Notes: generated by a model not told the origin, from the sequence alone. 64,000 nt of DNA from an uncultured Enterobacteriaceae bacterium (GCA_964447285.1 CAYURO010000018.1:20522-84521); one strand, 5' to 3'; shown: positions 6,429 through 27,726, counted from the stretch's first letter. Translations and numbers: made by a program.

Positions 6429-8306
6429 TCAGCGGCGCATCCCAGGGCGCCCGTTCGAGCCCGGGCGCAGGCCGCCGGGGCGCGCAGCGGGAACCACGGG
6501 GCGCGGCTTGGGCTTGACGACCTTGGGCTTCGGCTTGGGCTTGGCAACCTCAGGCGCAACCTCAGGCTTGGGCGTAGGGGCCGCCACCTCGGGCTCGGGC
6601 GCAGGCTGCGGCTCTGGGGCTGGGGCGGCCTCGACGGGGGGCTCTGGCGGCGGTGGCGGCACGGCGGGTTGCGCGTCGCCCAGCGAGCCCAGGATGCCGC
6701 CTGCGATGCCGGCGGAAGGCGCGTCGGGCAGCGTCCCTTCCGGAATTTGCACAGGTGGCGTCTCAGGTTGGGCAACCGGAGCAGGCTCGGGCGTCACGGC
6801 CGGGGCAGCCGCTGCGGCACCCAAAGGCGCGGTGGGAGCGGCGGGGTCCCACGACCCGGCGGTCGGGGCACCGGTTGCCTCGGTCGGGGTCGCGGGCGCC
6901 TCTGCGGTGGCCGGTGCGGTCGCTTCAACCGCTGCGGAATCGGCGGCGGCTGGCGAGTCTTTCGGTCCGAACACGCCCTGCGAGTAGAGCGTGTACGTCA
7001 CGACCCCGCCGAGGACGACAAAGGCCAGACCCATCACCAGGCCGACCGTCAGCGAGCTGGGCGGCGGGGTAGCGGGGGCAACCCGAGGCCGCGCAGGGCC
7101 TTGCGCGACAACGGACGTCGGCGGCGTTGCTGCCGGACGAGGCGGGGCGGCAGGTGGAGCGGCCGGCGCTGGACGGGCGACGGGAGCAGCACGCGGCGCA
7201 GGTGGCGCGCTCAGCGGCGAGGCGGCGGCGGACCGGGATGCGGGAGGCGGCGGCATGTAGGGCGGGGGAGCGGGCGCGGCGGCCGGGGCGCTGGCGGGGA
7301 CGAACGGTGGTGGCGCGGTCATTGCGGCGGCGGGCACTGCGGTCGGTTGCACAGCGGGGCTCGTCCCCAGAGATTCGAGGGCCTGTCGCATCGCGGTCGC
7401 GTCCGAGAAGCGGTCAGCGGGGCGCTTGGCCAGCGCGATCTCGACGATCTGGGCAAACTCGGAAGTCACGCCCAGATTCGGAAGGTTGCGCAGGTCAGGA
7501 GGCGCTTCGCCCACCTGTTTCATCATCATCGAGTAGGTGGAGTCTGCCTGGAACGGCAGCTCGGCCGCCACGCAGCCGTACAGGACGATGCCCAGCGCGT
7601 ACAGGTCGCTGCGGCCGTCGATAGGCTGCCCCATGACCTGTTCGGGGCTCATGTACGAAGGCGTCCCCAGCGACGTGCCGGTGCGGGTCAGCGAGCTGTC
7701 GGCCGTCTTGGCAATGCCGAAGTCCAGCACCTTGACGACGGTTTCCGCGCCGTCGATCTCGTGCAGGAAGATGTTGGCGGGCTTCAGGTCCCGGTGCACC
7801 AGACCCACGCGGTGCGCTTCGCCCAAGCTGCGCAGCACCGGGACAGCGATCTCCACGGTCTCTTCTTGAGACATGCGCTTGCCGTCGCGCTTGTAGCGGG
7901 CCAGCCGGTCGGCCAGCGTGTCGCCGCGCAGGCACTCCATCGCAAGGAAGAAGACGCCCTCGTCCGACTGGCCAAAGTCGAACACCCGAATCGTATTGGG
8001 GTGTTGCAGGCCTGCCGTCAGCCGCGCTTCCTTGTAGAAACGCTGGGCGGCCCCGGGGTCGGCATCCGAGTCCAGCAGCAGCGTCTTGATCGCGACCGTC
8101 TGCCCGGTACCGGTGTGCTGTGCCGAGTACACGGTCCCCATGCCGCCGCGGCCGAGCACGTTGCCGATGCGGTAGCGCCCTGCGAAAACGGAGTTGGGTG
8201 TCAGGGCGGCGTTGGAGGGGTGGACGCCCTCGACGATCGTGGCCATGCCGTCATCGGGGCAGTGGGCAAGGTCGGTCTTCTGGCCGCATTGCAGACAGGT
8301 GCGCAT
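6429..8306 (-). CDS. Eukaryotic-like Ser/Thr protein kinase with an N-terminal C4 zinc ribbon, a single transmembrane segment and an Ala/Pro-rich C-terminal ectodomain
   Basis: MRTCLQCGQ...HCPDDG zinc ribbon. Hanks motifs GRGGMGTVY, VAIK, HRDLKPANIF, DFGIA and SPE. Transmembrane segment LTVGLVMGLAFVVLGGVV. About 230 aa of A/P low-complexity sequence follow. Start set at the internal Met because the upstream part of the ORF overlaps the divergent gene at 8554. Confidence 0.85.
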   Translation of the reverse strand: MRTCLQCGQKTDLAHCPDDGMATIVEGVHPSNAALTPNSVFAGRYRIGNVLGRGGMGTVYSAQHTGTGQTVAIKTLLLDSDADPGAAQRFYKEARLTAGLQHPNTIRVFDFGQSDEGVFFLAMECLRGDTLADRLARYKRDGKRMSQEETVEIAVPVLRSLGEAHRVGLVHRDLKPANIFLHEIDGAETVVKVLDFGIAKTADSSLTRTGTSLGTPSYMSPEQVMGQPIDGRSDLYALGIVLYGCVAAELPFQADSTYSMMMKQVGEAPPDLRNLPNLGVTSEFAQIVEIALAKRPADRFSDATAMRQALESLGTSPAVQPTAVPAAAMTAPPPFVPASAPAAAPAPPPYMPPPPASRSAAASPLSAPPAPRAAPVARPAPAAPPAAPPRPAATPPTSVVAQGPARPRVAPATPPPSSLTVGLVMGLAFVVLGGVVTYTLYSQGVFGPKDSPAAADSAAVEATAPATAEAPATPTEATGAPTAGSWDPAAPTAPLGAAAAAPAVTPEPAPVAQPETPPVQIPEGTLPDAPSAGIAGGILGSLGDAQPAVPPPPPEPPVEAAPAPEPQPAPEPEVAAPTPKPEVAPEVAKPKPKPKVVKPKPRPVVPAARPGGLRPGSNGRPGMRR

Positions 8307-8553
8307 CGAGAGCTCCGGGCCGGTGAGTTCAGGTTCGGGGGCGGAAGGTTGGACTTCGCGCCGACTTGGCAGTTGGCGGAGTGTATCACGGTCAACCTCA
8401 GGACCGGAACGGGTCTCGTCGCGTGGGTTCCGGTGCGCTGACACCCCAGACGGCAAGTGTGCGCGAGGCGAACCCACTGTGCAGCCAGCGCATTGGCCCC
8501 TATACTGCTGCGCCATTCGGCCCGGCCGCACCGACGGCCAAGGAGATTTCCCG

Positions 8554-9246
8554 ATGCTGCGCCCCCTTTCCATGTCCACCGTCGTTGCCGTCCTTGCCCT
8601 GACCGCGCTTGCCTGCAACAAGGCCCCGCCCGCCGAACCGCAAGCCGCCGTCGCGCCCGCCCAGGTCGTCGAAACGCCGCCTGCCGCCGTTCCCGCTGCC
8701 GCCACGACGACGACTGAGGAGCCCAAGGCCGAAGGCGCCGCCTGCCCCCACGCCGGCACGTCCGCCTGCGTCCACGGTGAGCCCACTGCAGACACGTCGA
8801 TCCCCGCTGCCGCTGGCCCCGCGCTGACGATGCCCGGCACCACGTACGGCGCTGGCGTCACGGTCGCTGAGGTCACGCCGGTCTCGAAGGTCATCGCGGA
8901 GTCGGACACCTTCGTCGGCAAGCGCGTGCGTATCGAGGGCATGGTCACCGACGTCTGCGCGGCCAAGGGCTGCTGGATCCGCGTGGCAAGCGACAAGGAA
9001 TTCGAGAACATCCAGATCAAGGTCGACGACGGCGTGATCGTGTTCCCCGTCTCGGTCAAGGGCCAGTACGTGGTGGCGGAAGGCATCGTGCGCAAGATCC
9101 CGCTGACGCTGGAGCAGACCCAGAAGGTGGCGGCGCGCGAGGCGGAGGAGTCTGGCAACACCGCCTTCGACCCCAAGACCGTCACCGAGGCCAAGACGAT
9201 CGTGCGCCTGCAGGGTCTGGGCGCCGTCATTCGCGAGAAGAAGTAG
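8554..9246 (+). CDS. Small secreted lipoprotein, DUF4920-like
   Basis: AAGGAG Shine-Dalgarno. Signal peptide and lipobox LALTALAC. Conserved core VGKRVRIEGMVTDVCAAKGCWIRV. Ala/Pro/Thr-rich linker after the signal peptide. Confidence 0.55.
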   Translation: MLRPLSMSTVVAVLALTALACNKAPPAEPQAAVAPAQVVETPPAAVPAAATTTTEEPKAEGAACPHAGTSACVHGEPTADTSIPAAAGPALTMPGTTYGAGVTVAEVTPVSKVIAESDTFVGKRVRIEGMVTDVCAAKGCWIRVASDKEFENIQIKVDDGVIVFPVSVKGQYVVAEGIVRKIPLTLEQTQKVAAREAEESGNTAFDPKTVTEAKTIVRLQGLGAVIREKK

Positions 9247-14922: not shown

Positions 14923-16197
14923 CTACTTCGCGGCAGGGGGCGGAACCGGTGCGGCGGCAGGCGTCGGGACCGCGGCGGCCTTCGGAGCCGGAATGGCAGC
15001 GGGAGCGACACCGGGAGCCGGAGCTACGCCGGGAGCGGCACCCTGCGGCATCCCCTGCGGCATCCCCTGCGGCATTCCACCCTGCGGCATCCCCTGCGGC
15101 ATTCCACCCTGCGGCATCCCCTGCGGCATCCCCTGCGGCATTCCACCCTGCGGCATACCCTGCGGCATACCCTGCGGCATACCCTGCGGCATACCCTGCG
15201 GCATACCCTGCGGCATCCCCTGCGGCATCCCCTGAGGCATCCCACCCTGCGGCATCCCCTGAGGCATCCCACCCTGCGGCATCCCCTGAGGCATTCCACC
15301 CCGTGGCATCATTCCGGGAGGCATCATGCCGGCGGGCATGTCGGTGCCGGTCGGACGGCCGGGCAGGCCGCGGGGCATCATGCCGGGAGGCATGTCACCG
15401 GGGGGCATCATGCCGGGAGGCATCCCGTTGCCACCCTGGGGACCGAAGCGCTGGATGCGGCGGAAAATGGGGGTGAGCTCAGGTGCGGAGAAGTCGGTGA
15501 CCTCGTCGGGGCTGAACGACATGGGCACGCGCGCGGCACCGTCGAGCAGGAAGACCTCGACTGTGCAGGTCGGCGCCCCGGCGGCGAGAGCGAACAACAG
15601 GCCCTGCGGCCCTTGGTCGGCCCCGCGGCGCGGTGCAGGGGCGAACTTCAAGCCGGCCCCCTCAGCCGCGGCCACCAGACGGGACTTGCCCACGGCGCCC
15701 GAGACGTTGGGTCCGGCGACGAACGGCTGGCCGCCGAAGAGTTTGTTGGCCGCTTGCACACACTGGTCGGCGCGAGCACCGGCACCTTGGCGGAAGTGCA
15801 AGGTCGCCGTGACGCGGCCGTCCATCTCGAACAGGATCTGGACGCCCTGATCGTGCTCGAGGCGCACTTCCGAGTCGCCGTCGGGCGCCGGAATCACGAG
15901 ACGAACCGACCAGTCGCGCTCGCTGACGAACGGCACGCCGAACTTGCGGTCGCGCAGAATCTCGGCGCGGCCCTTGGGGTCGCTGCGGATCTTGGCCACC
16001 ACTTCCCATGCATCCGCGTAGCTGGCGGACTGCGTGGGGGCGACCTCAACGCGAACTTCCCTGCCGCCAAGCGGAGTTCCGTCGCGCTGGTACAACCACA
16101 GGTGAGTGGGGGCGACCCGCTCGACCATGCCGGCGATGACGAGAACGACCAAGACGGCGATGGCGCCGATTCCGATCCACAATCCCTTGCCTTGCAT
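14923..16197 (-). CDS. Membrane-anchored protein with a globular domain and a C-terminal Met/Pro/Gln/Gly tandem-repeat tail
   Basis: N-terminal transmembrane segment [20 protein letters not shown]. About 25 copies of GMPQG/MPQG. An Ala/Pro tail follows. Confidence 0.65.
15000..15330. repeat. Tandem 12/15-nt DNA repeat (ccctgcggcat / ccaccctgcggcat) encoding (G)MPQG units
   Basis: Directly visible as ggcatcccctgcggcattccaccctgcggcat iterations. The repeat also creates spurious ORFs in several frames on both strands (14949..15476, 14993..15235, 15024..15299). Confidence 0.9.
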
Positions 16198-16302: not shown

Positions 16303-17529
16303 TTACCCGACCGGTGGTGCGGCCTGCGCGAACCCCAGCACCGCGTCGGCAAGCTTTGCGTACTGCGGTAGGTGGTTGTAGCCCTGTGCAGAGACACGCA
16401 GCCAGCGGTGACCTCCCCACGTCATGACGGGCACCTCGATGCGGTGGACCTGCCACAGGTGCGCGGCCAGCGGGTCGGGGGGCAGCTCTGTCGCGTCGTC
16501 GGAGTCGTGCAGGTGGCCGGGCAGGGCGACCGTGGCCAGACTGCCGATCAGCTCGTCGGGGCAGGGCGGGGCGACCGCCCACGCCGAACACAGCAGATCC
16601 CGGGCCTGCAGGACCAGCGCACGGTTCGCGGCCAGCCACGCCGGCCAACCTCCGGGGCGCAGGCCGGCCAGAAACCGCAGGGCCACCGGGACGCACAGGG
16701 CAGCGGTCGGGTCGCCGGTGCCCGTCCAGTCGAATTCCATCCAGAAGCGGGGTCTTCCGCGTGTCGGTCCTTGGAAACCGTGACTGATCGACAGGGGATG
16801 CAGGTGAAGTTGGCGGTCGCGGCGGACGTGGAGGAAGGCCGCCCCCTTTGGGCCGCACGTCCACTTGTGGCAGTTGCCCGTGTAGTAGGCGGCGCCCAAG
16901 CGGTCGAGGTCGAGGACCACCATCCCGGGGCCGTGCGCCCCGTCGACCAGCACGTCGATTCCTTGCCCCTGCAGCGTGTCAATGATCGGCTGGATGGGCC
17001 ACACAAGGCCCGTGGGGCTTGTCACGTGGTCGATCAGGGCAAGGCGAGTCCGGGACGTCACCGCGGCGGTCACGGCATCGACCACCTGCCGGCCAGACGC
17101 AAGCGGAAACGGCACCTGCGCCACCACCACCCGCGCACCGGTCGTCTGGGCGACGTACTCGACGGCGTTGCGGCAGGCGTTGTAGCCGTGGTCCGTGACG
17201 AGGATCTCGTCGCCAGGAGCAAAAGCCATCGATCGCAGGACGGAATTCACGCCCGCCGTGGCGTTGGCGATCCATGCAAGGTCCTGCGGTTGGGCTCCAA
17301 GGAACGCGCCCAGCTCGGCCCTTGCAGCGTCCAGCAGCGGCTCGAGCTCGCGGTCCAGAAACTGAACCGGATTGCGCTCCATGCGCGCGCGCAGCTCTGT
17401 CTGGGCGTCCAGCACGATGTCGGGGCAGGCACCGAACGAGCCGTGGTTCAGAAAGGTGATGTTCTGCGCGACTTTCCAATGCGTGGCGAGGTCGTGGGCG
17501 GTGGGGGGCAAGGGTTGGGTCGGGCGCAT
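16303..17529 (-). CDS. Class-V aminotransferase (PLP-dependent; cysteine desulfurase / isopenicillin-N epimerase-like)
   Basis: PLP-lysine context GNCHKWTCGPKG. Fold-type I layout. Start set at the internal Met (MRPTQPLPP); the ORF extends to 17670. Confidence 0.75.
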   Translation of the reverse strand: MRPTQPLPPTAHDLATHWKVAQNITFLNHGSFGACPDIVLDAQTELRARMERNPVQFLDRELEPLLDAARAELGAFLGAQPQDLAWIANATAGVNSVLRSMAFAPGDEILVTDHGYNACRNAVEYVAQTTGARVVVAQVPFPLASGRQVVDAVTAAVTSRTRLALIDHVTSPTGLVWPIQPIIDTLQGQGIDVLVDGAHGPGMVVLDLDRLGAAYYTGNCHKWTCGPKGAAFLHVRRDRQLHLHPLSISHGFQGPTRGRPRFWMEFDWTGTGDPTAALCVPVALRFLAGLRPGGWPAWLAANRALVLQARDLLCSAWAVAPPCPDELIGSLATVALPGHLHDSDDATELPPDPLAAHLWQVHRIEVPVMTWGGHRWLRVSAQGYNHLPQYAKLADAVLGFAQAAPPVG

Positions 17530-17789
17530 GTGGGGCTCTGGGTTTGGGTCCGGGCGGGAAGCGTAGTGTCCTGCACCGCCGAAGTCGATTCGCCTGCCCG
17601 TGGCCGTGGCATCGTTCAACCTGTTCATCTCCGACGACAGACAACGCTGCGGGGTTGCATTTCGGCCCATTTCGGTTCAATTTGGGCCTCCTGATTTTGT
17701 AGAGCGTCCCGTCGGGAAACCATTCGTGAACAGCGTGTCTCTCGCAACCGTCCCTCGCGAACGCCACGCCAGGCTCGCCCTCCGCAAGC

Positions 17790-18995
17790 GTGAGGTTCTG
17801 TGTGATTCCTGATCTCTTGAGCAAGTACCCTGTGGGCGAGTTGTTGACGCGGCGTTTGCTGCTGGTCGACGACGAACTGCCCAACTTGGCCGTGCTGCAA
17901 GCGTTTCTGGAGACCGATTACGAGGTCTTGACGGCTCGGTCTGGTGCCGAAGCGCTGGCGTTGCTGGCCAAAGAGACGGTCGACGTCATCATCGCCGACC
18001 AGCGAATGCCCGAGATGACGGGCGTCGAGCTGTTGGAGCGGGCCCGAGAGACTCGCCCCGACGTTGCGACCATCGTGCTGACCGGTTACAGCGACACGCC
18101 GGCCCTGATCTCGGCCATCAACCGCGCCCGCGTGTTTCGTTACCTGAAGAAACCCTGGAACGCCGACGAGGTGCTGGACGCCGTGTCCCGCGCCAGTGAG
18201 GCCGTGGCGCAGCAGCGCGCGATCCTGCGGTTGGTCGAGTTGTTGTCGGCGCGCACCGACGAGCTGGACGCGGCCTTGGCAGAGCTGCAGGAAGCCCAGA
18301 AGAACATGCTGCATCTCGACCGTCTGGCCACGACTGGGCGTCTGGCGGCCGGCATCACCCATGACCTGCGCAACGCAATGAACGGGTTGCTGCACCTGGA
18401 GCGCGAGATCAACGCCCGTGACGCCGACCCCGAGCTTGTCGAGTCGGTGACCGTGGGCGTCGCGGGTGTCCGCAACCTGATGAATGCCTTGGAGACGATC
18501 AACCAGTTCGTCCGTCAGCGCCGGATGTCCATGGCGATGGAGTACTTTGACCCGGCCCAGGTGGTGAAGGATGCCGTAACGGTCATGCGGCTGGACCTTA
18601 ACTTTCGGGTGCGGCGGGTTGAGGTCGATGCGCCCGCGGGTGACCTGCCCCCGGTATTTGGCGACCGGCAGAAGCTCGTTCAAGTGCTGGTGAATCTGCT
18701 GCGCAATGCCGTTCAAGCGACCGAGTCGCAGCAGGCCATCGCGATTCGCGTCAGTCAGAGCGGTCCCAACATCGTCTACCAGGTCGAGGACGAGGGCGCC
18801 GGTTTTCCTGAGCACCTGCGTGAGCACCTGTTCCAGCCGTTTGTGTCGTCCAAGGGCGACCAGGGCATGGGGCTCGGGCTGTACATGTCGCACCTCATCG
18901 TCACGAGCCACAACGGCCGTATCGCCTGCCATGACCGGCCGGGCGGTGGCACCACCTTCGAGATCCACCTGCCGATTGCCGAAATGCCGGCATAG
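17790..18995 (+). CDS. Hybrid response regulator plus histidine kinase (REC - HisKA - HATPase)
   Basis: GTG start. REC domain LLLVDDE...IADQRMPEMTGVEL...KKPW. H-box ITHDLRNAMNGL. N and G boxes LLRNAVQAT, DEGAGFP and GMGLGLY. Confidence 0.8.
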   Translation: MRFCVIPDLLSKYPVGELLTRRLLLVDDELPNLAVLQAFLETDYEVLTARSGAEALALLAKETVDVIIADQRMPEMTGVELLERARETRPDVATIVLTGYSDTPALISAINRARVFRYLKKPWNADEVLDAVSRASEAVAQQRAILRLVELLSARTDELDAALAELQEAQKNMLHLDRLATTGRLAAGITHDLRNAMNGLLHLEREINARDADPELVESVTVGVAGVRNLMNALETINQFVRQRRMSMAMEYFDPAQVVKDAVTVMRLDLNFRVRRVEVDAPAGDLPPVFGDRQKLVQVLVNLLRNAVQATESQQAIAIRVSQSGPNIVYQVEDEGAGFPEHLREHLFQPFVSSKGDQGMGLGLYMSHLIVTSHNGRIACHDRPGGGTTFEIHLPIAEMPA

Positions 18996-19040
18996 GCGCA
19001 GCGGGCCTCGCGTCGCGAGGCCTTCTGGAGACTCCTTGCC

Positions 19041-20594
19041 ATGACCCTGACCAACGACATTTCCACCGTCACAGGCGCCTCGAGGCCGGACGTTGGCCAG
19101 CAATCCTTCGGAGAGATCAGAGAATACGAGGAGTTGGAAGGGGCGCAGGGGCGCGAGATCTTCTTCCGCCCGGAGCGCTATCGCCCCGAGGACCTGTTTC
19201 CACTGATGCCAGCGGTCGAAGTTTCTTGGGACGGAACAGTGGCGGCGTGCCAGCTGGTCGACATCTCGGCGTCGGGTGTAGGGCTTGCATGGTCCGGGAA
19301 CGCGATCCCTTTGGTGGGCGAGGTGTTGCAGCGCCTGACCGTCGGCTTCGACGGCCACGTTTTGTACGACGGAGGAGCCCGGGTCACGTCGCTGCGCCGT
19401 AGGGGCGATGCACAAGTGGTCGGCGTGTCCTTTGCCGACGCACTGGTCAGCATCGACGATGTGCTGAGCCTGCGACACGTCGTGACTTGGCGCGGCACCC
19501 AGTCAGACCTGTCGTTTGGTCAGGCCGAGTGGTCGATCGAGGGACATGAGACCTTCCGGGCGCACGTCGCCGAGTTCCGCCTGTTCCTTGAGGACGCCGA
19601 AGAAGCGTTTCGCAAGATGGAAGCGGACTTGCCGTGGTCCGTCGTGCACGGTGAGGCGGACCTGCCGGCGCGTCGCGCCCTGATCGAGCGGTTGCGCGCC
19701 GAGTTTGTGCCGCAGGTGCTCGACCGATTCACGCGGATCGATCAGGCGATGCGCCGCGCCAATCGAGCGGACAACGAGGTGCTGAAGGCGTTTTCGGTGC
19801 GTCATTTGCACCGACTGCTGATGCCCGCGCCGCTGCTGCACCGGACCCGTTACAAGCCACTGGGCTATCCGGGTGACTTCGAGTCCATGAATTACATGTA
19901 CTTCCGAAATTTTGAGGGTGCCACTCTGTATGGCAAGGCGCTGCACTTGGCCTCGTGCGACTCGCTGCCGGCCCAAGCAGTGCGGGCGCGCAAGGACGTG
20001 ATCAAGGCACGGTTGCTCGAGCTGGCCGGCGAGACCCGTCCGGGACGGCCCGTGCGCATCGCCTCGGTCGCAGCCGGCCCCGCCCAAGAAACGCTGGAAT
20101 TTCTGTCGGAGGTCAAAGAGATCGCGGGTCCCGTCGAGATCGTTCTGTTCGATCAGGACAAGCAGGCGTTGTCCTTCGCGCACCGTCGCCTGGGGCCGGC
20201 CGTCGAGCGTCATGGGCGTGGTCTGATCAAGCTGACTTTCCTGCACGACTCCATCAAGCGCCTGTTGCACGACCCCACGCTGTTCGCTGATCAAGGGCCG
20301 TTCGACTTCATCTTCAGTTCAGGTCTTTACGATTACTTGCGGATCCCGACGGCGGTGACGCTGACCCGCAACCTGCACTCGCAGCTGGTTCCCGGAGGGG
20401 AGGCGTACGTTGGCAACATGGACCCCGCCAACCCCTGCCGGTGGATCTTCGAGCATCACCTCGACTGGACCCTGATCTACCGATCTCAGGCCGAGATGCT
20501 CGGCTTCGGCCGCGTGGCGTTGCCCGATGCACCGCTGCGCATCGCCGAAGACCGCACGCGGATCAACCCGTTCCTGGTGGTGACACGCACGTGA
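19041..20594 (+). CDS. PilZ-like N-terminal domain fused to a class-I SAM-dependent methyltransferase with CheR-like features
   Basis: PilZ-like block QLVDISASGVGLAW..GEVL. C-terminal methyltransferase fold with RIASVAAGPAQETLEF (compare CheR IWSAGCSTGEEPYS) and FDFIFSSGLYDYL (compare CheR FDLIFCRNVLIYF). The CheR assignment is an inference. Confidence 0.55.
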   Translation: MTLTNDISTVTGASRPDVGQQSFGEIREYEELEGAQGREIFFRPERYRPEDLFPLMPAVEVSWDGTVAACQLVDISASGVGLAWSGNAIPLVGEVLQRLTVGFDGHVLYDGGARVTSLRRRGDAQVVGVSFADALVSIDDVLSLRHVVTWRGTQSDLSFGQAEWSIEGHETFRAHVAEFRLFLEDAEEAFRKMEADLPWSVVHGEADLPARRALIERLRAEFVPQVLDRFTRIDQAMRRANRADNEVLKAFSVRHLHRLLMPAPLLHRTRYKPLGYPGDFESMNYMYFRNFEGATLYGKALHLASCDSLPAQAVRARKDVIKARLLELAGETRPGRPVRIASVAAGPAQETLEFLSEVKEIAGPVEIVLFDQDKQALSFAHRRLGPAVERHGRGLIKLTFLHDSIKRLLHDPTLFADQGPFDFIFSSGLYDYLRIPTAVTLTRNLHSQLVPGGEAYVGNMDPANPCRWIFEHHLDWTLIYRSQAEMLGFGRVALPDAPLRIAEDRTRINPFLVVTRT

Positions 20595-23302
20595 TGCCCC
20601 GACTGAACCCAGTACAGCCGCACGCGCAACCGCTGGAGGCCGCCCCCGTCGACGTGGAGCGGCGGTGGGAATCGTGGCTGGTCCAACGCAATCGGATGAG
20701 CACGCTGATCGCATTTTGGCTGACGATCACCATCTACCCCATGTTCGGCTTGCTGGACTGGATGGTGGCGCCGTCGAAGTGGTGGCCGCTGCTGTTTACG
20801 ACCCGTGCGGTGGTGTCGCTTTGGAGCCTCTGGCTGCTCGCCATTCATCGCGGTGAGTTTTTCGGTCGGCACTGGCGCATCCTGACTTCGGGGCACGCGG
20901 TCATGCTGGGCGGCGGTATCTCTGTGATGACCGTGGTGATGGGCGGTTACGAGACGCCGTACTACGCGGGCCTGAATCTGTCGGTCATGGGCGTCGGTCT
21001 GCTGTTCGTGTGGACGGGGCGGCAGGCCGCGTGGACCTACGGGCTCGTCGTTGCTTCCTACGTGGTTCCAAACGCGTTCCACGGGGGGCCGATCAACTGG
21101 GCGTGGGCTGCCCCGAACCTGTTCTTCGTCATATCGACCGCCACGGTGGTCACGGCCGCCCAGGCGTTCGGCTTTCGGTCCAACCGCGACCAAGTGCTGA
21201 ACCAGATTCGGCTGGAGCAGACGACGGCCAACCTCGAGCGGGCGCACGCCCAACTGCAGCAACTGGACGCGTTCAAGACCAAGTTCTTCGCAAACATTAC
21301 GCATGAACTGAAGACGCCGCTTGCGATGATCCTCTCGCCGCTGGAGCTGCTGATTCAGGAGGAGCTGGGCCGATTGACCGAGGTGCAGCGGTCGACGCTG
21401 CAGACGATGTTCCGCAATGGCTTTAAATTGCTGAACCTGATCAACGACTTGCTGGACCTGACCAAGCTGGAGGAGTCGCGACTCCGCCTGCGTATTGCGC
21501 AGCACGACATGGTCGAGTGGCTGGGAAGTCTGGTCGGACATGTGCAGCCGCTGGCCCAGCGCAAGCGAGTGTCGTTGGTGTTCAGTTCCTCGGTTGCGGA
21601 CGCGAACATCTGGTGCGACATCGAACGCATCGAGCGGGTGATGATCAACCTACTGTCGAACGCCGTGAAATTCACGCCCGCTGAGGGCCACATCGAGGTG
21701 CGACTCTACGACGACGGTGGCTCGGTGCGGGTCGAGGTCGCGGACGATGGCCCGGGTTTTCCCCCCGAGATGGCCGACCGTGTGTTCGAGCGGTTCTTCC
21801 AAGTCGACATGGGCGGCACCCGCAAGCACGGCGGCACCGGCATCGGACTGGCCTTGGCACGCGAGCTGGTCGGGCTGCATGGCGGCCGCATCTACGCGCG
21901 CGGTGCTGAGGGCAAGGGCGCCTGCTTCACCGTCGAGCTCCTGAAGGGGCGCACCCAATTCCGCCCCGACACGCTGACCGATGCCTCAGAGCCCGGGGAC
22001 GCGCTGAAGGTCGGCCGGCCCCACCAGATCGAGATCTTGGGGGGAGCCGTCGAGGTGGATGGGCGCGACGACTACCGTTTGCTCGACATCTCCGAGTTGA
22101 CCGAGCGACGCGTGGTCGAGCGAGATCAGGACGAAAACCAGCGCCAATGGACGGTGCTGATCGTCGAGGACACCCCGGACGTCATCCGCGTCATCCACCT
22201 GGCACTGCGGCGTCACTTCAAGGTCATGGCGGCCCCTGACGGGCTGAAGGGCCTGGAGATGGCCGTGCGCGAGCTGCCGTCGCTGATCATCACCGACCTG
22301 ATGATGCCCGGTATCGATGGACTCGAGCTGACCCGTCGGTTGCGCGAGGACCCGCGGACGCGCCACACGCCGATCGTGATGCTGACGGCCCGCGGTGACC
22401 TGGATGACCGGGTGCGCGGACTCGACACCGGCGTCAACGCGTACTTGAGCAAGCCGTTCTCGGCCAAGGAGCTGCTCTCGACCGCCCGCGCGCTGCTGAA
22501 CATTCAGGAGACGCAGGCCGACCTGCTGCTGAACTCGCGGCTGGACTCGCTCGAGACCATCGCCGGCGGTCTGGCGCACGAAATCAACAACCCGCTGAAC
22601 TACGTGAAGAATGCGCTGAGGCGGGTCGAGATCGACGTGCACGACACCGTCGAGTTGATGCACGCCGCGCGGGGTCGCGTCCTGACGGACGACGAGGTCG
22701 TGCGCTTGCAGAAGAGCGAGGACCGCGTCCACAAAATGATCGAGATGGCCGACGGCGGGGTGAAACGCATCGCGGCAACCGTAGACCTGATGGGACGTTA
22801 CAGTCGCGAGGGCTACTCCCGCGCCATGCGCCTCTACGACGCTTTCGGTGCCGTGCGCGATATCGTCGCCATGGTCCTGCCCGCGACGGGAAGGCCGGTG
22901 AAGGTGGACGTGGATCTGGTGGGCGACGGACATGTGGACTGCGTGCCCGAGGAACTGAACCAAGTGCTGTCGAACCTGGTGCAGAACGCCATCGAGGCCG
23001 TTGCGGACGAGTCTGGCTGCGTGTCTGTCACGGGGCGCGGCGACGACGACTGGGTGACGGTAACGGTGGCCGACAACGGGCACGGCATCTCGGACGAGGC
23101 AAAGGCGCGCATCTTCACGCCTTTCTTCACCACCAAGGGCCCCGGTCGCGGCATGGGCATGGGCCTGACCATCGTCCGCCGCGTCGTGCAGAGCTTGGGC
23201 GGCACCTTGCAGCTGACCAGCGAAGCCGGCGTCGGCACCACGTTCATCGTCCGTCTGCCGCGGCGCAGTCCGGTCGACCAGCAGGCCCTGCCGCTGGCGT
23301 GA
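20594..23302 (+). CDS. Large hybrid sensor histidine kinase: N-terminal polytopic membrane sensor - HisKA/HATPase - REC - second HisKA-like/HATPase
   Basis: The ATG overlaps the upstream stop (TGATG). About five transmembrane helices. H-box ITHELKTPL. G-box GGTGIGLALAREL. REC domain VLIVEDTP..DLMMPGIDG..SKPF. Second module LAHEINNPLNYV with VADNGHGI..GMGMGLTI. Confidence 0.85.
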   Translation: MPRLNPVQPHAQPLEAAPVDVERRWESWLVQRNRMSTLIAFWLTITIYPMFGLLDWMVAPSKWWPLLFTTRAVVSLWSLWLLAIHRGEFFGRHWRILTSGHAVMLGGGISVMTVVMGGYETPYYAGLNLSVMGVGLLFVWTGRQAAWTYGLVVASYVVPNAFHGGPINWAWAAPNLFFVISTATVVTAAQAFGFRSNRDQVLNQIRLEQTTANLERAHAQLQQLDAFKTKFFANITHELKTPLAMILSPLELLIQEELGRLTEVQRSTLQTMFRNGFKLLNLINDLLDLTKLEESRLRLRIAQHDMVEWLGSLVGHVQPLAQRKRVSLVFSSSVADANIWCDIERIERVMINLLSNAVKFTPAEGHIEVRLYDDGGSVRVEVADDGPGFPPEMADRVFERFFQVDMGGTRKHGGTGIGLALARELVGLHGGRIYARGAEGKGACFTVELLKGRTQFRPDTLTDASEPGDALKVGRPHQIEILGGAVEVDGRDDYRLLDISELTERRVVERDQDENQRQWTVLIVEDTPDVIRVIHLALRRHFKVMAAPDGLKGLEMAVRELPSLIITDLMMPGIDGLELTRRLREDPRTRHTPIVMLTARGDLDDRVRGLDTGVNAYLSKPFSAKELLSTARALLNIQETQADLLLNSRLDSLETIAGGLAHEINNPLNYVKNALRRVEIDVHDTVELMHAARGRVLTDDEVVRLQKSEDRVHKMIEMADGGVKRIAATVDLMGRYSREGYSRAMRLYDAFGAVRDIVAMVLPATGRPVKVDVDLVGDGHVDCVPEELNQVLSNLVQNAIEAVADESGCVSVTGRGDDDWVTVTVADNGHGISDEAKARIFTPFFTTKGPGRGMGMGLTIVRRVVQSLGGTLQLTSEAGVGTTFIVRLPRRSPVDQQALPLA

Positions 23303-23424
23303 ACCCATCAGTTCCGCAGCGGATCCGCGCCACCGGCTTGACAGACCCCCGCGCGTCCCGTGGACTTGCCCTCCCCCCGAACAGTGCGCCTTGGTGTGAG
23401 CGGCCGTTGCCGCAGGAGTCCCGC

Positions 23425-25461
23425 ATGTCCGCCGCCGCCCCCAAGCCCTCACTGCGTCTCGGGTTTCGCCTGTTTCAACGGGCTCCGGCCAGTGTGGAGG
23501 AGGCCCAGCAGCACCCGCCGCTCGACATCGGGCCGGACCAGGTGCTCGAGATGGACGAGGCCGAGTGGTACGCAAAGGTCTATCGCGGCGAGGACGCCCC
23601 CCAGTTGACATGGCGCGCGGTGCTGGTGGGCTCGCTGCTGGGCTTTCTGCTTGCGTTCACCAACCTGTACATCGGCCTGAAGACCGGGTGGGCGCTGGGC
23701 GTGGCCATCACCGCGACCATCGTGTCGTATTCGCTGTGGTCGGTGCTGCAGCGGGTTGGGCTGGCAAAGGCGCCGATGACGATCCTCGAGACCAACTGCA
23801 TGCAGTCCACGGCCTCGTCCGCTGGTTATGCGACGGGTGGCACGATGGTGTCGGCGATTGCCGCGCTGCTGATGGTCTCGGGCCACCACCTGCCGTGGCC
23901 GGTCCTCGTCGCGTGGACGCTGCTGTTGGGGGCTCTGGGTACGGTCCTGGCCATCCCCATGAAACGCAACATGATCAACCGCGAACGCCTGCGCTTTCCC
24001 TCTGGCACCGCCGCCGCCGTGACGTTGCAGTCGCTGTACAGCAAGGGCGATGAGGCGCTGGCCAAGGCCCGGGCGCTGTTTTGGGCGGCGTTGGGCGGCG
24101 CGGTGGTGCCGCTGCTGATCGAGCTGCAGGTGCGCGAGACCGTCAGCGCGACGGGAGAGAAGGTGCGGTCGGCGCTGCTGCCCGCGGAGTCGGCGCTGTT
24201 CGACTGGCTGCCGGCGCTGGGCACCCACGCACACGAGGGCGGCGGCCAGGTGGCCAACAAGCCGTCGGACTGGACGATGGTGCTGGACCACAACCCCATC
24301 ATGATCGCCGCGGGCGCCCTGGTGGGGCTGAAGGTCGCGATTTGGATGACGTTGTCGGGGCTGTTCCTGGCGTACGTGCTGGGGCCGCTGGGGCAGGACG
24401 CGGTCTGGACGAACGGGCAGGGCGAGCTGGTCGCGGCCGTCACGGCCCCGGGCAAGGCTTGGAAGGAGATCGGCATTTGGTCCGGCGTGCCGATCATGGT
24501 CGCCTCGGGTCTGCTGATGTTCCTGTTGCAGTGGCGCACGATCCTGCGCGCTTTCCAAGGCTTGGGCAGCAGCGCGGTTGGCGGCACCGACGACCACATC
24601 GGCCGCACCGAGGTGCCGTTCTCGTGGTTCGCTTGGGGCGTCGTCCTCAGCGGCGGCGGCGTGGTGTGGCTGGCGCACGCGTACTTCGCGGTGCCGTTGC
24701 ACTACGGAGCGCTGGCCGTCGCGCTGACGTTCTTCCTGTCGCTGGTGGCTTGTCGCGCAACGGGCGAGTCGGACATCACGCCGGTGGGCGCGATGGGCAA
24801 GGTCATGCAGCTGACCTACGGCGTGCTGATCCCGCAGAACGCGACGGCCAACCTGATGACGGCCAGCATCACGTCCAGCTCAGCCGGCTCGGCGGCGGAC
24901 CTGCTGAACGACCTGAAGTCCGGGTATCTGCTGGGCGCCCACCCGCGACGGCAGTTCATGGCGCAGTTCATTGGCATCTTTTCGGGTACTGCGGCGACGG
25001 TCATGGGCTTCTACCTGCTGGTGCCCGATGCGGCCGCGCTGATGGGTTCGACGGCGGCCGACGGCACCGTCATCGCCCCCAAGTTCCCGGCGCCGGCGGC
25101 CCAGACGTGGAAGGCGGTGGCCGACGTGTTTCGGCACGGTCTGGGCAACATGCACCCCGTGCACCGTGAGGCGATTTTCTGGGGCCTTGGGTTTGGCGTC
25201 GTGCTGGTGGTGCTGGAACAGGTGTTCCCCAAGTGGCAGAAGTGGTTGCCGTCGGCCACCGGCATCGGTCTGGGGCTGATCCTGCCCTTTCAGTACCCGC
25301 TGTCGATGCTGGTCGGTGCCCTGATCGCATGGGGGTGGCAGGCGCGCAGCAAGGAGGGGGCAGAGCGGTACGTCGTGCCGGTCGCCTCGGGCATCATCGC
25401 GGGCGTGTCGATCGTCGGCGTCGTCGTGGCGGCGTTGAACAACTTGCTGTTCGCTCCCTGA
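23425..25461 (+). CDS. OPT-family oligopeptide transporter
   Basis: AGGAG Shine-Dalgarno. 678 aa with about 14-16 transmembrane segments. OPT-family layout and conserved Gly/Pro-rich transmembrane helices. Confidence 0.8.
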   Translation: MSAAAPKPSLRLGFRLFQRAPASVEEAQQHPPLDIGPDQVLEMDEAEWYAKVYRGEDAPQLTWRAVLVGSLLGFLLAFTNLYIGLKTGWALGVAITATIVSYSLWSVLQRVGLAKAPMTILETNCMQSTASSAGYATGGTMVSAIAALLMVSGHHLPWPVLVAWTLLLGALGTVLAIPMKRNMINRERLRFPSGTAAAVTLQSLYSKGDEALAKARALFWAALGGAVVPLLIELQVRETVSATGEKVRSALLPAESALFDWLPALGTHAHEGGGQVANKPSDWTMVLDHNPIMIAAGALVGLKVAIWMTLSGLFLAYVLGPLGQDAVWTNGQGELVAAVTAPGKAWKEIGIWSGVPIMVASGLLMFLLQWRTILRAFQGLGSSAVGGTDDHIGRTEVPFSWFAWGVVLSGGGVVWLAHAYFAVPLHYGALAVALTFFLSLVACRATGESDITPVGAMGKVMQLTYGVLIPQNATANLMTASITSSSAGSAADLLNDLKSGYLLGAHPRRQFMAQFIGIFSGTAATVMGFYLLVPDAAALMGSTAADGTVIAPKFPAPAAQTWKAVADVFRHGLGNMHPVHREAIFWGLGFGVVLVVLEQVFPKWQKWLPSATGIGLGLILPFQYPLSMLVGALIAWGWQARSKEGAERYVVPVASGIIAGVSIVGVVVAALNNLLFAP

Positions 25462-25566
25462 CCTGCATCCGACGGTGCCCAATCGTACTCCTACCCCCCC
25501 ATGCCGTTTGGGTCTAAGCTTCGGCATTCCACTGCGACCGTTGGGCCGCCCACCTTGGGGGACGTC

Positions 25567-27726
25567 ATGACGCCTGCTTGCACGACCATGTTCCGCACAC
25601 TTCGACGGGTTGCGTTGGGCGTTCTTGCGCCGCTGCTGCTGCCGACACTTGCGTCTGCCGCAGTGCCGACCACCGTGCTGCTCGAGGGGACGCTGCAGGC
25701 GACGGGCGGCGGTCCGGCGGCGGACGGCAAGTATCTGCTGAATCTGGCGATCTATCCCGATGCGCTGGGTGGTCAGGCGGCGTGGAGCGAGCAGGGCGCT
25801 GAAGCGTCGGTTCAGGGCGGCTTGTTCAGTCTCGCCATGGGCGCAAAGGTCCCGCTGAAGCCCGAGCTGCTGGCGGCGCTGTCCAAAGCCTATCTGGGCG
25901 TGACCGTGCAGCCGGACCCCGAGCTACCGCGGGTGCCGGTACACGCCGTTCTGTACGCGTTGCGCGCTGGCGTGGCGACGGGGATCGACTGTTCCGGCTG
26001 CATCCAGACCGCGCATCTGGATCCGCAGGTGTTGGCCCCTTATGCCAAGTCGGCCGATCTGGCGGCCTATGCCAAGACCGCGTCGTTGGCCACGGTCGCG
26101 ACCTCGGGGGCCTTCGCTGACCTGTCGGGCGGCCCGGACCTGAGTGCCTATGCGAAGACGGCCTCGCTGGCGACGGTTGCGACATCCGGCACATACGCAG
26201 ACTTGGAGGGATTGCCGACCCTTGCCAAGCTGGGCATCGCCTGCGGGACCGGCTTGGTGGTGCGCGGACTGAAGGCAGACGGCAGCTACGACTGCGTGCA
26301 GGCGATGGACCCCTTGGCGCTGCCCAAGGATGCGCTCGACGAGGTCTCGAACGGCCTGTTGACCAACCAGTTCAACGAGGTCGCCGCCAGCACGAAACTC
26401 GTCCCCATCCCCGACAACAGCCCCGTCGGCATCAGTGACGTGATCGACGTGCCGGACTTCGGCACTGCCCAGACGTTCAGCGTAGCCGCCGAGATCGCCA
26501 ACAGCGACACCGGAAATCTGCGGATCACGCTCATCGACCCCACCGGCACCAAGTTCGTCCTGTGGGACAAGACGGCCAAGGGCACCATCGTCAAGACGAC
26601 GTGGCCCACCCCGACCAAGACGGTGTCCGGCGACTTGAGTACATGGATCGGCAAGAACCCTAAGGGAAAGTGGTACTTAGAGGTAATTGACGTCGCCTTC
26701 TTGAACAACGGCTTCGACGGTGCCCTGAAGGGGTGGAGCCTGAACATCGGCGTCATGTCGTCTGCCAAGGTCGGGTTGGCTGGTCTGCTGAAGCTGCAGA
26801 ACGCCGCCGAGGCCCCGCTTCCGTGCGGTCCGACACTGGCCGGTTCGCTGTACTTCGACACAGTGGCCAAGGCCGTGCGCTATTGCGACGGGGCGGCTTG
26901 GCGCAACTTGGCCGACACGTGCGGCAACGGCATTCTCGACGCCACCGAGCAGTGTGACGACGGCAACAACACCGATGGCGACGGCTGCTCGGCCACCTGC
27001 CAGACCGTGTGCGGCGACGGCAAGTTGCTGGGCAAGGAAGAGTGCGACGACGGCAACACCAAGGATGGCGACGGCTGCAGCGCGGCGTGCATCGCGTCGG
27101 TCGGTTTCTCGAAGGTGCGACCGGGCGCCTCGTGCGCTGCCATCCTCGCTGCGTGGACCAGTGCGGGCTGGACGGCCAAGGACGGCAAGTACTGGCTCGA
27201 CCCGAATCTGGGCGACCCAGCCGACGCGTTCCTGGCGACCTGCGACATGACGCAGAAGGGCGGTGGCTGGACCAAGGTCAGCGAGTTCGCCGAGACGTAC
27301 TACGACAACCTCAGCGACCGCAGCAAGATCCCGTACAAGGAAGTGCTGGTCCTCGAGTGGGACCACACCACCGCGACCCCCGTCTACTCGAACTTTGTGG
27401 TCCAGCACGCCTGCTACAACTCGGCCAAGACCGGCTTCCAGGTTGCCAACACATCGGCGAACTGCGACTCGGGCTATCAGGTCCGGGTCGGTGGCACGGG
27501 CGGTTCGTGCGGCGACGCCGAGGACGGCTGCTTTGGCTTGTACTACGGCGACTTGGCCGTTGGCGGCGGGTGCAACTGGAACTGCGGCGCGGGTGCCGTG
27601 AAGATCTGGGGCAAGGGCTACGCCTGCAATTCGTGCCGCTGCCGCAACGCGCCATACACGACAATCGAAGGCTGCGGCAACGGCGGTGCGTGGGGCAACA
27701 AGCGCTTCTGGATCTACGTGCGCTAA
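25567..27726 (+). CDS. Secreted multidomain protein: signal peptide - conserved N-terminal domain - ~24-aa tandem repeats - P-like (proprotein convertase P) domain - two Myxococcus Cys-rich repeats - fibrinogen-related domain
   Basis: Signal peptide LLLPTLASAA. Repeats DLAAYAKTASLATVATSGAFADLSGGPDLSAY. P-domain-like GKNPKGKWYLEVIDVAFLNNGFDGALKGWSLNI. CGNGILDATEQCDDGNNTDGDGCSATC occurs twice. CDMTQKGGGWT is a fibrinogen C-terminal-domain hallmark. Confidence 0.7.
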   Translation: MTPACTTMFRTLRRVALGVLAPLLLPTLASAAVPTTVLLEGTLQATGGGPAADGKYLLNLAIYPDALGGQAAWSEQGAEASVQGGLFSLAMGAKVPLKPELLAALSKAYLGVTVQPDPELPRVPVHAVLYALRAGVATGIDCSGCIQTAHLDPQVLAPYAKSADLAAYAKTASLATVATSGAFADLSGGPDLSAYAKTASLATVATSGTYADLEGLPTLAKLGIACGTGLVVRGLKADGSYDCVQAMDPLALPKDALDEVSNGLLTNQFNEVAASTKLVPIPDNSPVGISDVIDVPDFGTAQTFSVAAEIANSDTGNLRITLIDPTGTKFVLWDKTAKGTIVKTTWPTPTKTVSGDLSTWIGKNPKGKWYLEVIDVAFLNNGFDGALKGWSLNIGVMSSAKVGLAGLLKLQNAAEAPLPCGPTLAGSLYFDTVAKAVRYCDGAAWRNLADTCGNGILDATEQCDDGNNTDGDGCSATCQTVCGDGKLLGKEECDDGNTKDGDGCSAACIASVGFSKVRPGASCAAILAAWTSAGWTAKDGKYWLDPNLGDPADAFLATCDMTQKGGGWTKVSEFAETYYDNLSDRSKIPYKEVLVLEWDHTTATPVYSNFVVQHACYNSAKTGFQVANTSANCDSGYQVRVGGTGGSCGDAEDGCFGLYYGDLAVGGGCNWNCGAGAVKIWGKGYACNSCRCRNAPYTTIEGCGNGGAWGNKRFWIYVR

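Follow-up and report, generated by a model that had tools for sequence, protein, structure and literature searches.

A candidate Phc-type signalling cassette in uncultured myxobacteria, with a PilZ-type domain on a PhcB-like methyltransferase and a kinase resembling a PhcS-PhcR fusion

We analysed a stretch of DNA of 64,000 nucleotides (hereafter the window), with a G+C content of about 66%, that is labelled as coming from an uncultured Enterobacteriaceae bacterium (GCA_964447285.1 CAYURO010000018.1:20522-84521). Our subject is a set of three adjacent genes on its forward strand. These encode a protein in which a receiver domain (REC) precedes a histidine kinase (HK), an S-adenosylmethionine (SAM)-dependent methyltransferase and a large membrane-bound hybrid kinase. 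A first-pass annotation of the window had described the methyltransferase as a PilZ domain fused to a CheR-like enzyme, translationally coupled to the hybrid kinase. As far as gene layout is concerned, each point that we checked held, i.e., the open reading frames (ORFs), the TGATG overlap, the order of the domains and the REC-HK gene upstream at 17790. However, our comparisons relate the methyltransferase to PhcB. In Ralstonia solanacearum and Cupriavidus, PhcB is the synthase of the quorum signal 3-hydroxypalmitic acid methyl ester (3-OH PAME) or 3-hydroxymyristic acid methyl ester (3-OH MAME).

The methyltransferase gene (19041-20594, +) encodes 517 amino acids, among them the peptides QLVDISASGVGLAW, RIASVAAGPAQETLEF and FDFIFSSGLYDYL on which the first-pass annotation had based its assignments. 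Three regions can be distinguished. At the N-terminus, residues 43-150 (19167-19490) form a predicted PilZ-type beta-barrel with a C-terminal helix, as judged from comparison of the predicted fold and from motifs; it contains R43-P-E-R46, with both arginines invariant among relatives (nucleotides 19167-19178), and D74-I-S-A-S-G79 (19260-19277). This is followed by a helical linker or cap region, comprising residues ~165-330 (19533-20030; helices at 170-329 in the AlphaFold2 model), with the family signature KPLGYPGDF (19854-19880) at its end. Residues 335-517 (20043-20591) make up a class I (Rossmann) SAM methyltransferase core, which is recognized by sub-threshold Pfam matches, by structural neighbours and by motifs in common with PhcB.

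The methyltransferase and kinase genes overlap within the sequence GTGATG (20591-20596). The methyltransferase's stop codon, TGA at 20592-20594, shares its A with a kinase start codon, ATG at 20594-20596, and an in-frame GTG at 20591 is an alternative start. The kinase gene (20594-23302, +) thus encodes 902 amino acids from the ATG or 903 from the GTG; residue numbers below are counted from the GTG. Several hydrophobic segments lie within residues 36-196 and correspond to a multi-pass membrane sensor (20669-21190) that resembles the MASE8-type sensor of PhcS. Next comes a first kinase core (21275-21940), in which Pfam finds HisKA at 229-295 and HATPase_c at 343-450, and whose phospho-acceptor is H238 in the H-box HELKTP (nucleotides 21302-21304). 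The receiver domain (22154-22483; Response_reg at 522-631, 92 bits) carries the phospho-acceptor D569 in a DLMMP motif (22295-22297). The second kinase module (22538-23269) was delimited by Pfam, a motif scan and alignment with PhcR. It consists of a dimerization and histidine phosphotransfer (DHp) region, with H663 in the H-box HEINNP (22577-22579), ahead of a second HATPase_c domain at ~788-879. The motif scan located H, N and G1 boxes in both modules and a G2 box in the second only; GGTGIGL can be read from the sequence as the G2 box of the first. The earlier description of a multi-transmembrane hybrid kinase with two ATPase modules flanking a receiver is therefore borne out.

The upstream REC-HK gene (17790-18995, +) encodes 401 amino acids, with Pfam matches to Response_reg at 24-132 and HATPase_c at 291-397. 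Its product has a receiver aspartate, D70 (nucleotides 17997-17999), an H-box ITHDL with H191 (18360-18362), and N, G1 and G2 boxes.

Given these features, we asked to which family the methyltransferase belongs. A homologue search returned more than 500 full-length relatives, which are 45-55% identical to our protein and nearly all come from Myxococcota-type metagenome bins. Many of them bear the JGI (KEGG-style) label [quoted passage not shown], i.e., PhcB. A tblastn match on a Paraburkholderia graminis plasmid spans residues 88-511, and downstream of the matching gene lie those for a sensor kinase and two response regulators. The protein of this Paraburkholderia PhcB orthologue aligns with ours by BLASTP at 28% identity (E 8e-40) and, when used as a query, it retrieves proteins of Cupriavidus, Massilia and Janthinobacterium that are 65-90% identical to it, many of which carry that JGI name. 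When an alignment of 64 myxobacterial family members was compared with one of 32 betaproteobacterial PhcB proteins using hhalign, the match had a probability of 100% (E 4.9e-53) over 453 columns at 25% identity. It runs from residue 43 to 517 of our protein and from 1 to 463 of PhcB, and so covers all three regions, including those outside the Rossmann core. The motif KPLGY[PA]GD[YF] is invariant both in the myxobacterial family and in true PhcB, and GPAxE, GLFDYL and a C-terminal NP.R...W.LIYR are invariant or nearly so in both alignments. In the window's protein, motif I reads AAGPAQE, and GLYDYL and the tail NP..R...E..LDW.LIYR are likewise in common with PhcB.

Structural comparison points in a compatible direction. 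The AlphaFold2 model of the whole protein has a mean predicted local distance difference test score (pLDDT) of 88.6, and its nearest solved structures are small-molecule or polyketide methyltransferases, namely 3ocj, SgvM, SibL, O-methyltransferases, CurJ and C-methyltransferases of polyketide synthases (PKS). No CheR structure occurs among the top 50 structural neighbours. Every Pfam match to this protein on its own lies below threshold: Methyltransf_25 scores 21 bits over residues 342-453 against a cut-off of 27, Methyltransf_31 and Methyltransf_12 are also sub-threshold, and the CheR match, confined to residues 418-460, scores 12.9 bits where the cut-off is 27. Pfam does not find CheR_N, the N-terminal helical domain, no NCBIfam model matches the protein, and a search of the PDB by sequence with the whole protein gave only marginal methyltransferase matches (best E 0.044). 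A CheR-family identity (PF01739 with PF03705) is contradicted by the weak and partial Pfam score, the missing CheR_N and the lack of a CheR structural neighbour. Because of the full-length profile match, the common motifs and the non-CheR structural neighbours, we place the 517-residue protein in the PhcB family rather than with CheR, as a distant homologue along its full length. The first-pass annotation had itself named two findings that would speak against its reading. One of these, a C-terminal domain belonging with non-CheR small-molecule methyltransferases, is what we found; the other, the lack of any PilZ signature, is not.

Two observations concern the chemistry of PhcB-like enzymes. 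A methyltransferase of the cyclopropane-fatty-acyl-phospholipid-synthase family adjoins the PhcB-like gene both in the locus on the Paraburkholderia plasmid (L005:4823-5845) and in a metagenome contig unrelated to it (L089:1703-2584). These neighbours hint at lipid substrates.

We studied how widely the gene pair is conserved by scanning one genome per GTDB species. This yielded 591 confirmed stretches, of which the best 80 were examined. Nearly all of the latter are from Myxococcota-type bins; the titles of three name other groups (Enterobacteriaceae, Chloroflexi and Proteobacteria), and two are 94% identical to the window. Among the 69 loci with at least 2.8 kb of downstream sequence, all four kinase parts follow in order in 67, and in 64 they are in a single frame adjacent to the methyltransferase. 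The gene pair is therefore strongly conserved, as the first-pass annotation had proposed to establish from its phyletic pattern. The kinase start lies between -34 and +82 nucleotides from the methyltransferase stop in related loci, most often as a GTGA, ATGA or TGATG overlap. A homologue of the upstream REC-HK occurs at the same position in 46 of the 72 loci with room upstream. Exceptions are few: one locus has the kinase parts in different frames, with gene calls of a separate HK and REC-HK as in Ralstonia; two lack the second kinase module; one has an insertion of 1.1 kb; and one (L068) has the second kinase module in another frame. With more than 500 full-length homologues and the same kinase parts in 67 of 69 loci, the pairing of methyltransferase and kinase goes beyond chance.

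The family is also large. Searching 1.84 billion representatives with the methyltransferase profile gave 1,353 clusters with E<=1e-30, a number that rises to 4,283 if the limit is set to E<=1e-10. One distant relative with tandem PilZ domains (P0309; locus L088:2512-5926) is followed 14 nucleotides on by a membrane-HK-REC kinase that is homologous to ours (28% identity, E 7e-66). Some single metagenome-assembled genomes carry two diverged methyltransferase-kinase cassettes (the locus pairs L025/L079, L023/L026, L032/L084 and L020/L086), one copy having the upstream REC-HK and the other being without it. This suggests that the two cassettes of a genome are paralogous signalling channels.

The first-pass annotation had read the N-terminus as a PilZ domain that would act as a receptor for cyclic diguanylate (c-di-GMP), and this reading stands in part. 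Modelled alone, residues 27-152 have a pLDDT of 87, and in a Foldseek comparison of the domain model with the PDB almost all of the best 36 matches are PilZ domains. They include those of Alg44, YcgR, BcsA, MotI, PlzD, MrkH, PlzA and MapZ, with E-values from 3e-4 and template modelling scores of 0.55-0.66 (normalized to the target). The Pfam PilZ model matches residues 48-133 of the window's protein at 18.1 bits, which is under the cut-off of 22.5, but it matches 54 of the 64 family members at E<=0.01 (best 1e-7). A search of the PDB by sequence with a profile of the domain gave nothing at E<=10, and so the assignment rests on Pfam together with the comparison of predicted folds. By its predicted fold, then, the N-terminus is a PilZ-type domain.

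The part of the claim that did not stand concerns one of the two motifs by which PilZ domains are known. The second motif, [D/N]hSxxG, is present: across the 64 family members, D74 is conserved in 63, S76 in 55 (with alanine in the other 9) and G79 in all, and h is V, L or I. However, the canonical RxxxR directly before strand beta-1 is absent in the window's protein. What is found instead is an invariant R43-P-x-R46-[YF], i.e., an RxxR, in a low-confidence loop about 10 residues ahead of beta-1, within a wider conserved stretch YEEL.G..GR.V.FRPxRY. The motif pair RxxR...[DN]h[SA]xxG occurs in 95 of 110 diverse full-length representatives that are less than 50% identical to each other. The N-domains of the myxobacterial proteins keep residues that resemble a ligand site. 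Longer family members (~595-800 amino acids) add a further N-terminal PilZ domain, which scores 51-83 bits, above the Pfam cut-off, and has both RRxxxR and [DN]xSxxG. In P0309, P0324, P0356 and similar proteins, this extra canonical domain precedes the RxxR-type one. Betaproteobacterial PhcB has a homologue of the PilZ-type domain as well, in its first 95 residues (hhalign 91.6%, E 8e-7), without the arginine loop and with N-L-Q-R-K-S at the position of the second motif. The N-terminus of Ralstonia-type PhcB thus appears to be a degenerate PilZ remnant.

The kinase can be compared with PhcS and PhcR part by part. When the membrane regions of 35 myxobacterial kinases were compared with the N-termini of PhcS proteins by hhalign, the probability was 98% (E 1.9e-13). 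A motif MGG..(S/T)PYYAGLNL is conserved among the former, and (S/T)PYYxGLxL is common to both groups. In BLASTP, residues 45-450 of the kinase align with PhcS, and the alignment runs through the membrane region. Residues 513-890 align with residues 2-370 of Cupriavidus PhcR (E 1e-21), and the receivers of the two proteins align. The kinase thus looks like PhcS and PhcR fused into one polypeptide. The upstream REC-HK aligns with Cupriavidus PhcR from end to end (26% identity, E 1e-21) and with the C-terminal half of the downstream kinase (27% identity, E 4e-29). A receiver followed by a histidine-kinase-like domain, without any domain for DNA binding, is what characterizes PhcR (PMC8578825), and this arrangement is seen both in the C-terminal half of the fusion kinase and in the upstream gene, although 26% identity alone is no proof of orthology. 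By its domain arrangement, the upstream REC-HK is a second gene with PhcR architecture.

Our point of reference is a four-gene operon in Cupriavidus, which encodes a methyltransferase of 463 amino acids, a MASE8-HisKA-HATPase protein of 443, a REC-HisKA-HATPase protein of 381 and a REC protein of 332. This is the phcB-phcS-phcR-phcQ operon of the literature, where PhcR is described as a receiver plus kinase (PMC8578825; PMC10653808). In Cupriavidus as in the window, the methyltransferase gene lies directly upstream of a gene for a MASE8-type sensor kinase, and the two methyltransferases are alike in having an N-terminal beta-barrel, a helical region closing with KPLGY[AP]GDY and a class I SAM methyltransferase with GPAxE and GLFDYL. 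However, the window's protein has about 50 more residues at its N-terminus, where the conserved arginine loop lies, and it retains the [D/N]hSxxG motif that PhcB has lost; moreover, its family is from Myxococcota and PhcB from Burkholderiaceae, with ~25-28% identity between them. Both systems have a homologous membrane sensor with SPYYxGLxL and the order sensor-HK, then REC-HK, and the phospho-acceptor histidine is at a similar position, H238 here and H230 in PhcS, its autophosphorylation site (PMC11960443). They differ in that one polypeptide of 902 amino acids (so in 64 of 69 myxobacterial loci) takes the place of two genes in Cupriavidus. In addition, the first core here is a classic HisKA with HELKTP, whereas the PhcS H-box, HEVNNP, resembles that of our second module. 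Finally, no PhcQ follows the kinase, and there is an extra gene of PhcR architecture upstream. Despite these differences, the layout is that of phcB-phcS-phcR in Ralstonia and Cupriavidus, with S and R fused. It is hence not new in itself, contrary to the earlier suggestion that it is not a described signalling architecture.

Considering all of this, our preferred reading is that the locus is a Phc-type cassette of signal synthase and receptor from an uncultured myxobacterium, to which we assign a probability of roughly 0.6. Sequence comparison shows that the methyltransferase is homologous to PhcB and the sensor of the kinase to PhcS, and that the domain order is PhcR-like. The catalytic and phospho-acceptor residues are intact, and the operon is tightly coupled. 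Several points weigh on the other side. Identity to PhcB is only ~25-28%, so that the substrate and product may differ from those of PhcB. The Pfam MASE8 model matches neither the window's kinase nor, taken singly, the sensor regions of 35 relatives, and the link between this sensor and PhcS is therefore made by profile-profile comparison only. Between the kinase cores and PhcS or PhcR, identity is ~26-30%, a level that any two histidine kinases would usually show. Because this identity is ordinary, the PhcS-PhcR assignment relies on the homology of the sensor, on the order of the domains and on the genetic linkage with the synthase. In the loci that we examined, neither a PhcQ-like nor a PhcA-like partner is conserved next to the cassette. 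With regard to the N-domain, the RxxxR that it lacks is needed for c-di-GMP binding in the PilZ domains that have been studied, and in true PhcB, a functional enzyme, the domain is degenerate.

If the Phc-type reading is correct, a mechanism can be proposed by analogy. The methyltransferase would methylate a lipid-like carboxylate, perhaps a 3-hydroxy fatty acid as in the known systems, to give a diffusible ester, and the MASE8-like membrane domain would sense this ester. The first kinase core would autophosphorylate at H238 and pass the phosphate to D569. The state of D569 would in turn set the activity of the second kinase (H663), and thereby act on some response regulator. Finally, the PilZ-type domain may tie signal synthesis to c-di-GMP or a related ligand, which is the least certain step. 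A bolder version can also be formulated. There may be a large and overlooked Phc-type class in Myxococcota and other lineages, whose synthase is gated directly by c-di-GMP via the N-terminal PilZ domain, with its variant RxxR/[DN]hSxxG and sometimes after a canonical PilZ domain. The Ralstonia PhcB would then be a derivative without that input. We regard this version as speculative and rather unlikely to be right as a whole.

The role of the PilZ-type domain is where an alternative competes most closely. The domain could be a structural module, or one that docks a protein or substrate, rather than a receptor for c-di-GMP, with RPxR and DhSxxG serving another ligand or an intramolecular contact. 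There are precedents for this in Ralstonia PhcB and in domains of the xPilZ or PilZ(PA2960) type, and the spacing and placement of the arginines, the sub-threshold Pfam score of the window's protein and the homologous N-domain of betaproteobacterial PhcB, with neither motif, all favour this alternative. Even the added canonical PilZ domain of some relatives could mean that the proximal domain cannot bind alone. On the other hand, canonical PilZ domains (Alg44, YcgR, BcsA and MapZ; PF07238) have in common with this one a predicted six-stranded beta-barrel with a C-terminal helix, a [D/N]hSxxG with a hydrophobic h and conserved arginines in a flexible N-terminal loop. The conservation of D74, S76 and G79 fits a motif that contacts c-di-GMP, and the invariance of R43 and R46 within a loop that is otherwise modelled with low confidence is reminiscent of the PilZ arginine switch. 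In addition, the motif pair persists at less than 50% identity, and the fold neighbours are PilZ structures bound to c-di-GMP. We consider a docking or structural role to have a little under an even chance.

Two further alternatives concern the output of the cassette. The same parts might function without cell-to-cell signalling, if the substrate of the methyltransferase is a lipid or fatty acid of the cell, modified as part of envelope or lipid metabolism, and if the membrane kinase senses that lipid or the state of the membrane in a homeostatic circuit. The ~25% identity to PhcB leaves room for such a divergence, the cyclopropane-synthase-family neighbours in two loci point to lipid chemistry, and the sensor is wholly membrane-embedded. 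However, the sole characterized members of the synthase and sensor families are a pair of autoinducer synthase and receptor. Moreover, it is typical of autoinducer systems that synthase and receptor genes are strictly adjacent and translationally coupled, as they are here in hundreds of lineages, and we judge a purely homeostatic function to be unlikely. The other alternative is that of the first-pass annotation, a c-di-GMP-responsive, CheR-like protein methyltransferase that acts on the kinase or on a chemoreceptor-like partner in a new architecture. It draws on partial Pfam CheR matches, which reach E<=0.01 in 24 of the 64 relatives, on the tight coupling of the methyltransferase and kinase genes, and on the finding that MapZ, a PilZ protein, binds CheR1 in Pseudomonas aeruginosa (bioRxiv 10.1101/814665). 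CheR does have the class I SAM methyltransferase fold, with a short local similarity near FDFIFSSGLYDYL. However, the match in the window's protein is far below the cut-off and involves only the generic strand region after motif II, and neither a CheR N-terminal domain nor any significant Pfam or structural match to CheR was found here. Since small-molecule or PKS methyltransferases account for all of the top 50 structural neighbours and the homology to PhcB is full-length, we regard a CheR-like protein methyltransferase as very improbable.

The surroundings of the cassette can be described briefly. The gene for an OPT-family oligopeptide transporter (23299-25461, +) begins with a GTG that overlaps the stop codon of the kinase gene (GTGA). 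The two genes are neighbours in this way only in the two loci with a 94%-identical methyltransferase (L007 and L008), and the transporter is probably not part of the signalling cassette. We rejected it as a cassette member, along with an upstream class-V aminotransferase, as they accompany the cassette only in those two relatives. Scans for promoters and terminators over 17500-25700 gave no more sites than in shuffled sequence. Further away, an ORF of 424 amino acids (14923-16197, -) has no Pfam match. It encodes an N-terminal hydrophobic segment and a long C-terminal Gly/Met/Pro/Gln repeat of the (G)MPQ type, which corresponds to a tandem array of 12, 27 and 39 nucleotides at 15039-15310 with about 20 copies of the 12-mer. 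Downstream, an ORF of 741 amino acids (25501-27726, +) has a proprotein-convertase P-domain and a DUF4215 Cys-rich repeat, and its product is probably secreted. A Ser/Thr protein kinase of 933 amino acids (6429-9230, -) has a Pkinase domain at 353-614 and a long N-terminal region without a Pfam match. Kinases of this kind are typical of myxobacterial genomes.

We also searched the literature for precedents. No description was found of Phc-type cassettes in Myxococcota, although this is weak evidence of absence because subscription journals were mostly outside the search. With the same incomplete coverage, and so with the same weakness as evidence of absence, we found no PhcS-PhcR fusion, no PilZ domain on PhcB-type enzymes and no other report of this PilZ-methyltransferase architecture. 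Direct control of autoinducer synthesis by c-di-GMP of this kind was not found within that coverage either. Automated annotation already tags relatives as PhcB-like or "PilZ domain-containing".

In the literature that we found, Phc quorum sensing is confined to Ralstonia, Cupriavidus and related Betaproteobacteria. Our analysis would extend the logic of synthase, sensor and PhcR, in a highly diverged and fused form, to many uncultured Myxococcota and to other lineages. The N-terminal region of PhcB itself may be reinterpreted as a PilZ domain that has degenerated. From the conserved PilZ-type domain of the synthase, together with the canonical PilZ domain in some relatives, follows a directly testable hypothesis, namely that c-di-GMP controls autoinducer synthesis. 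If the synthase is indeed gated through its PilZ domain, an intracellular second messenger would be wired to the production of an extracellular signal. Few diffusible signals are known from myxobacteria, which are social bacteria, and for this reason the cassette is a concrete candidate for a signalling system in these organisms.

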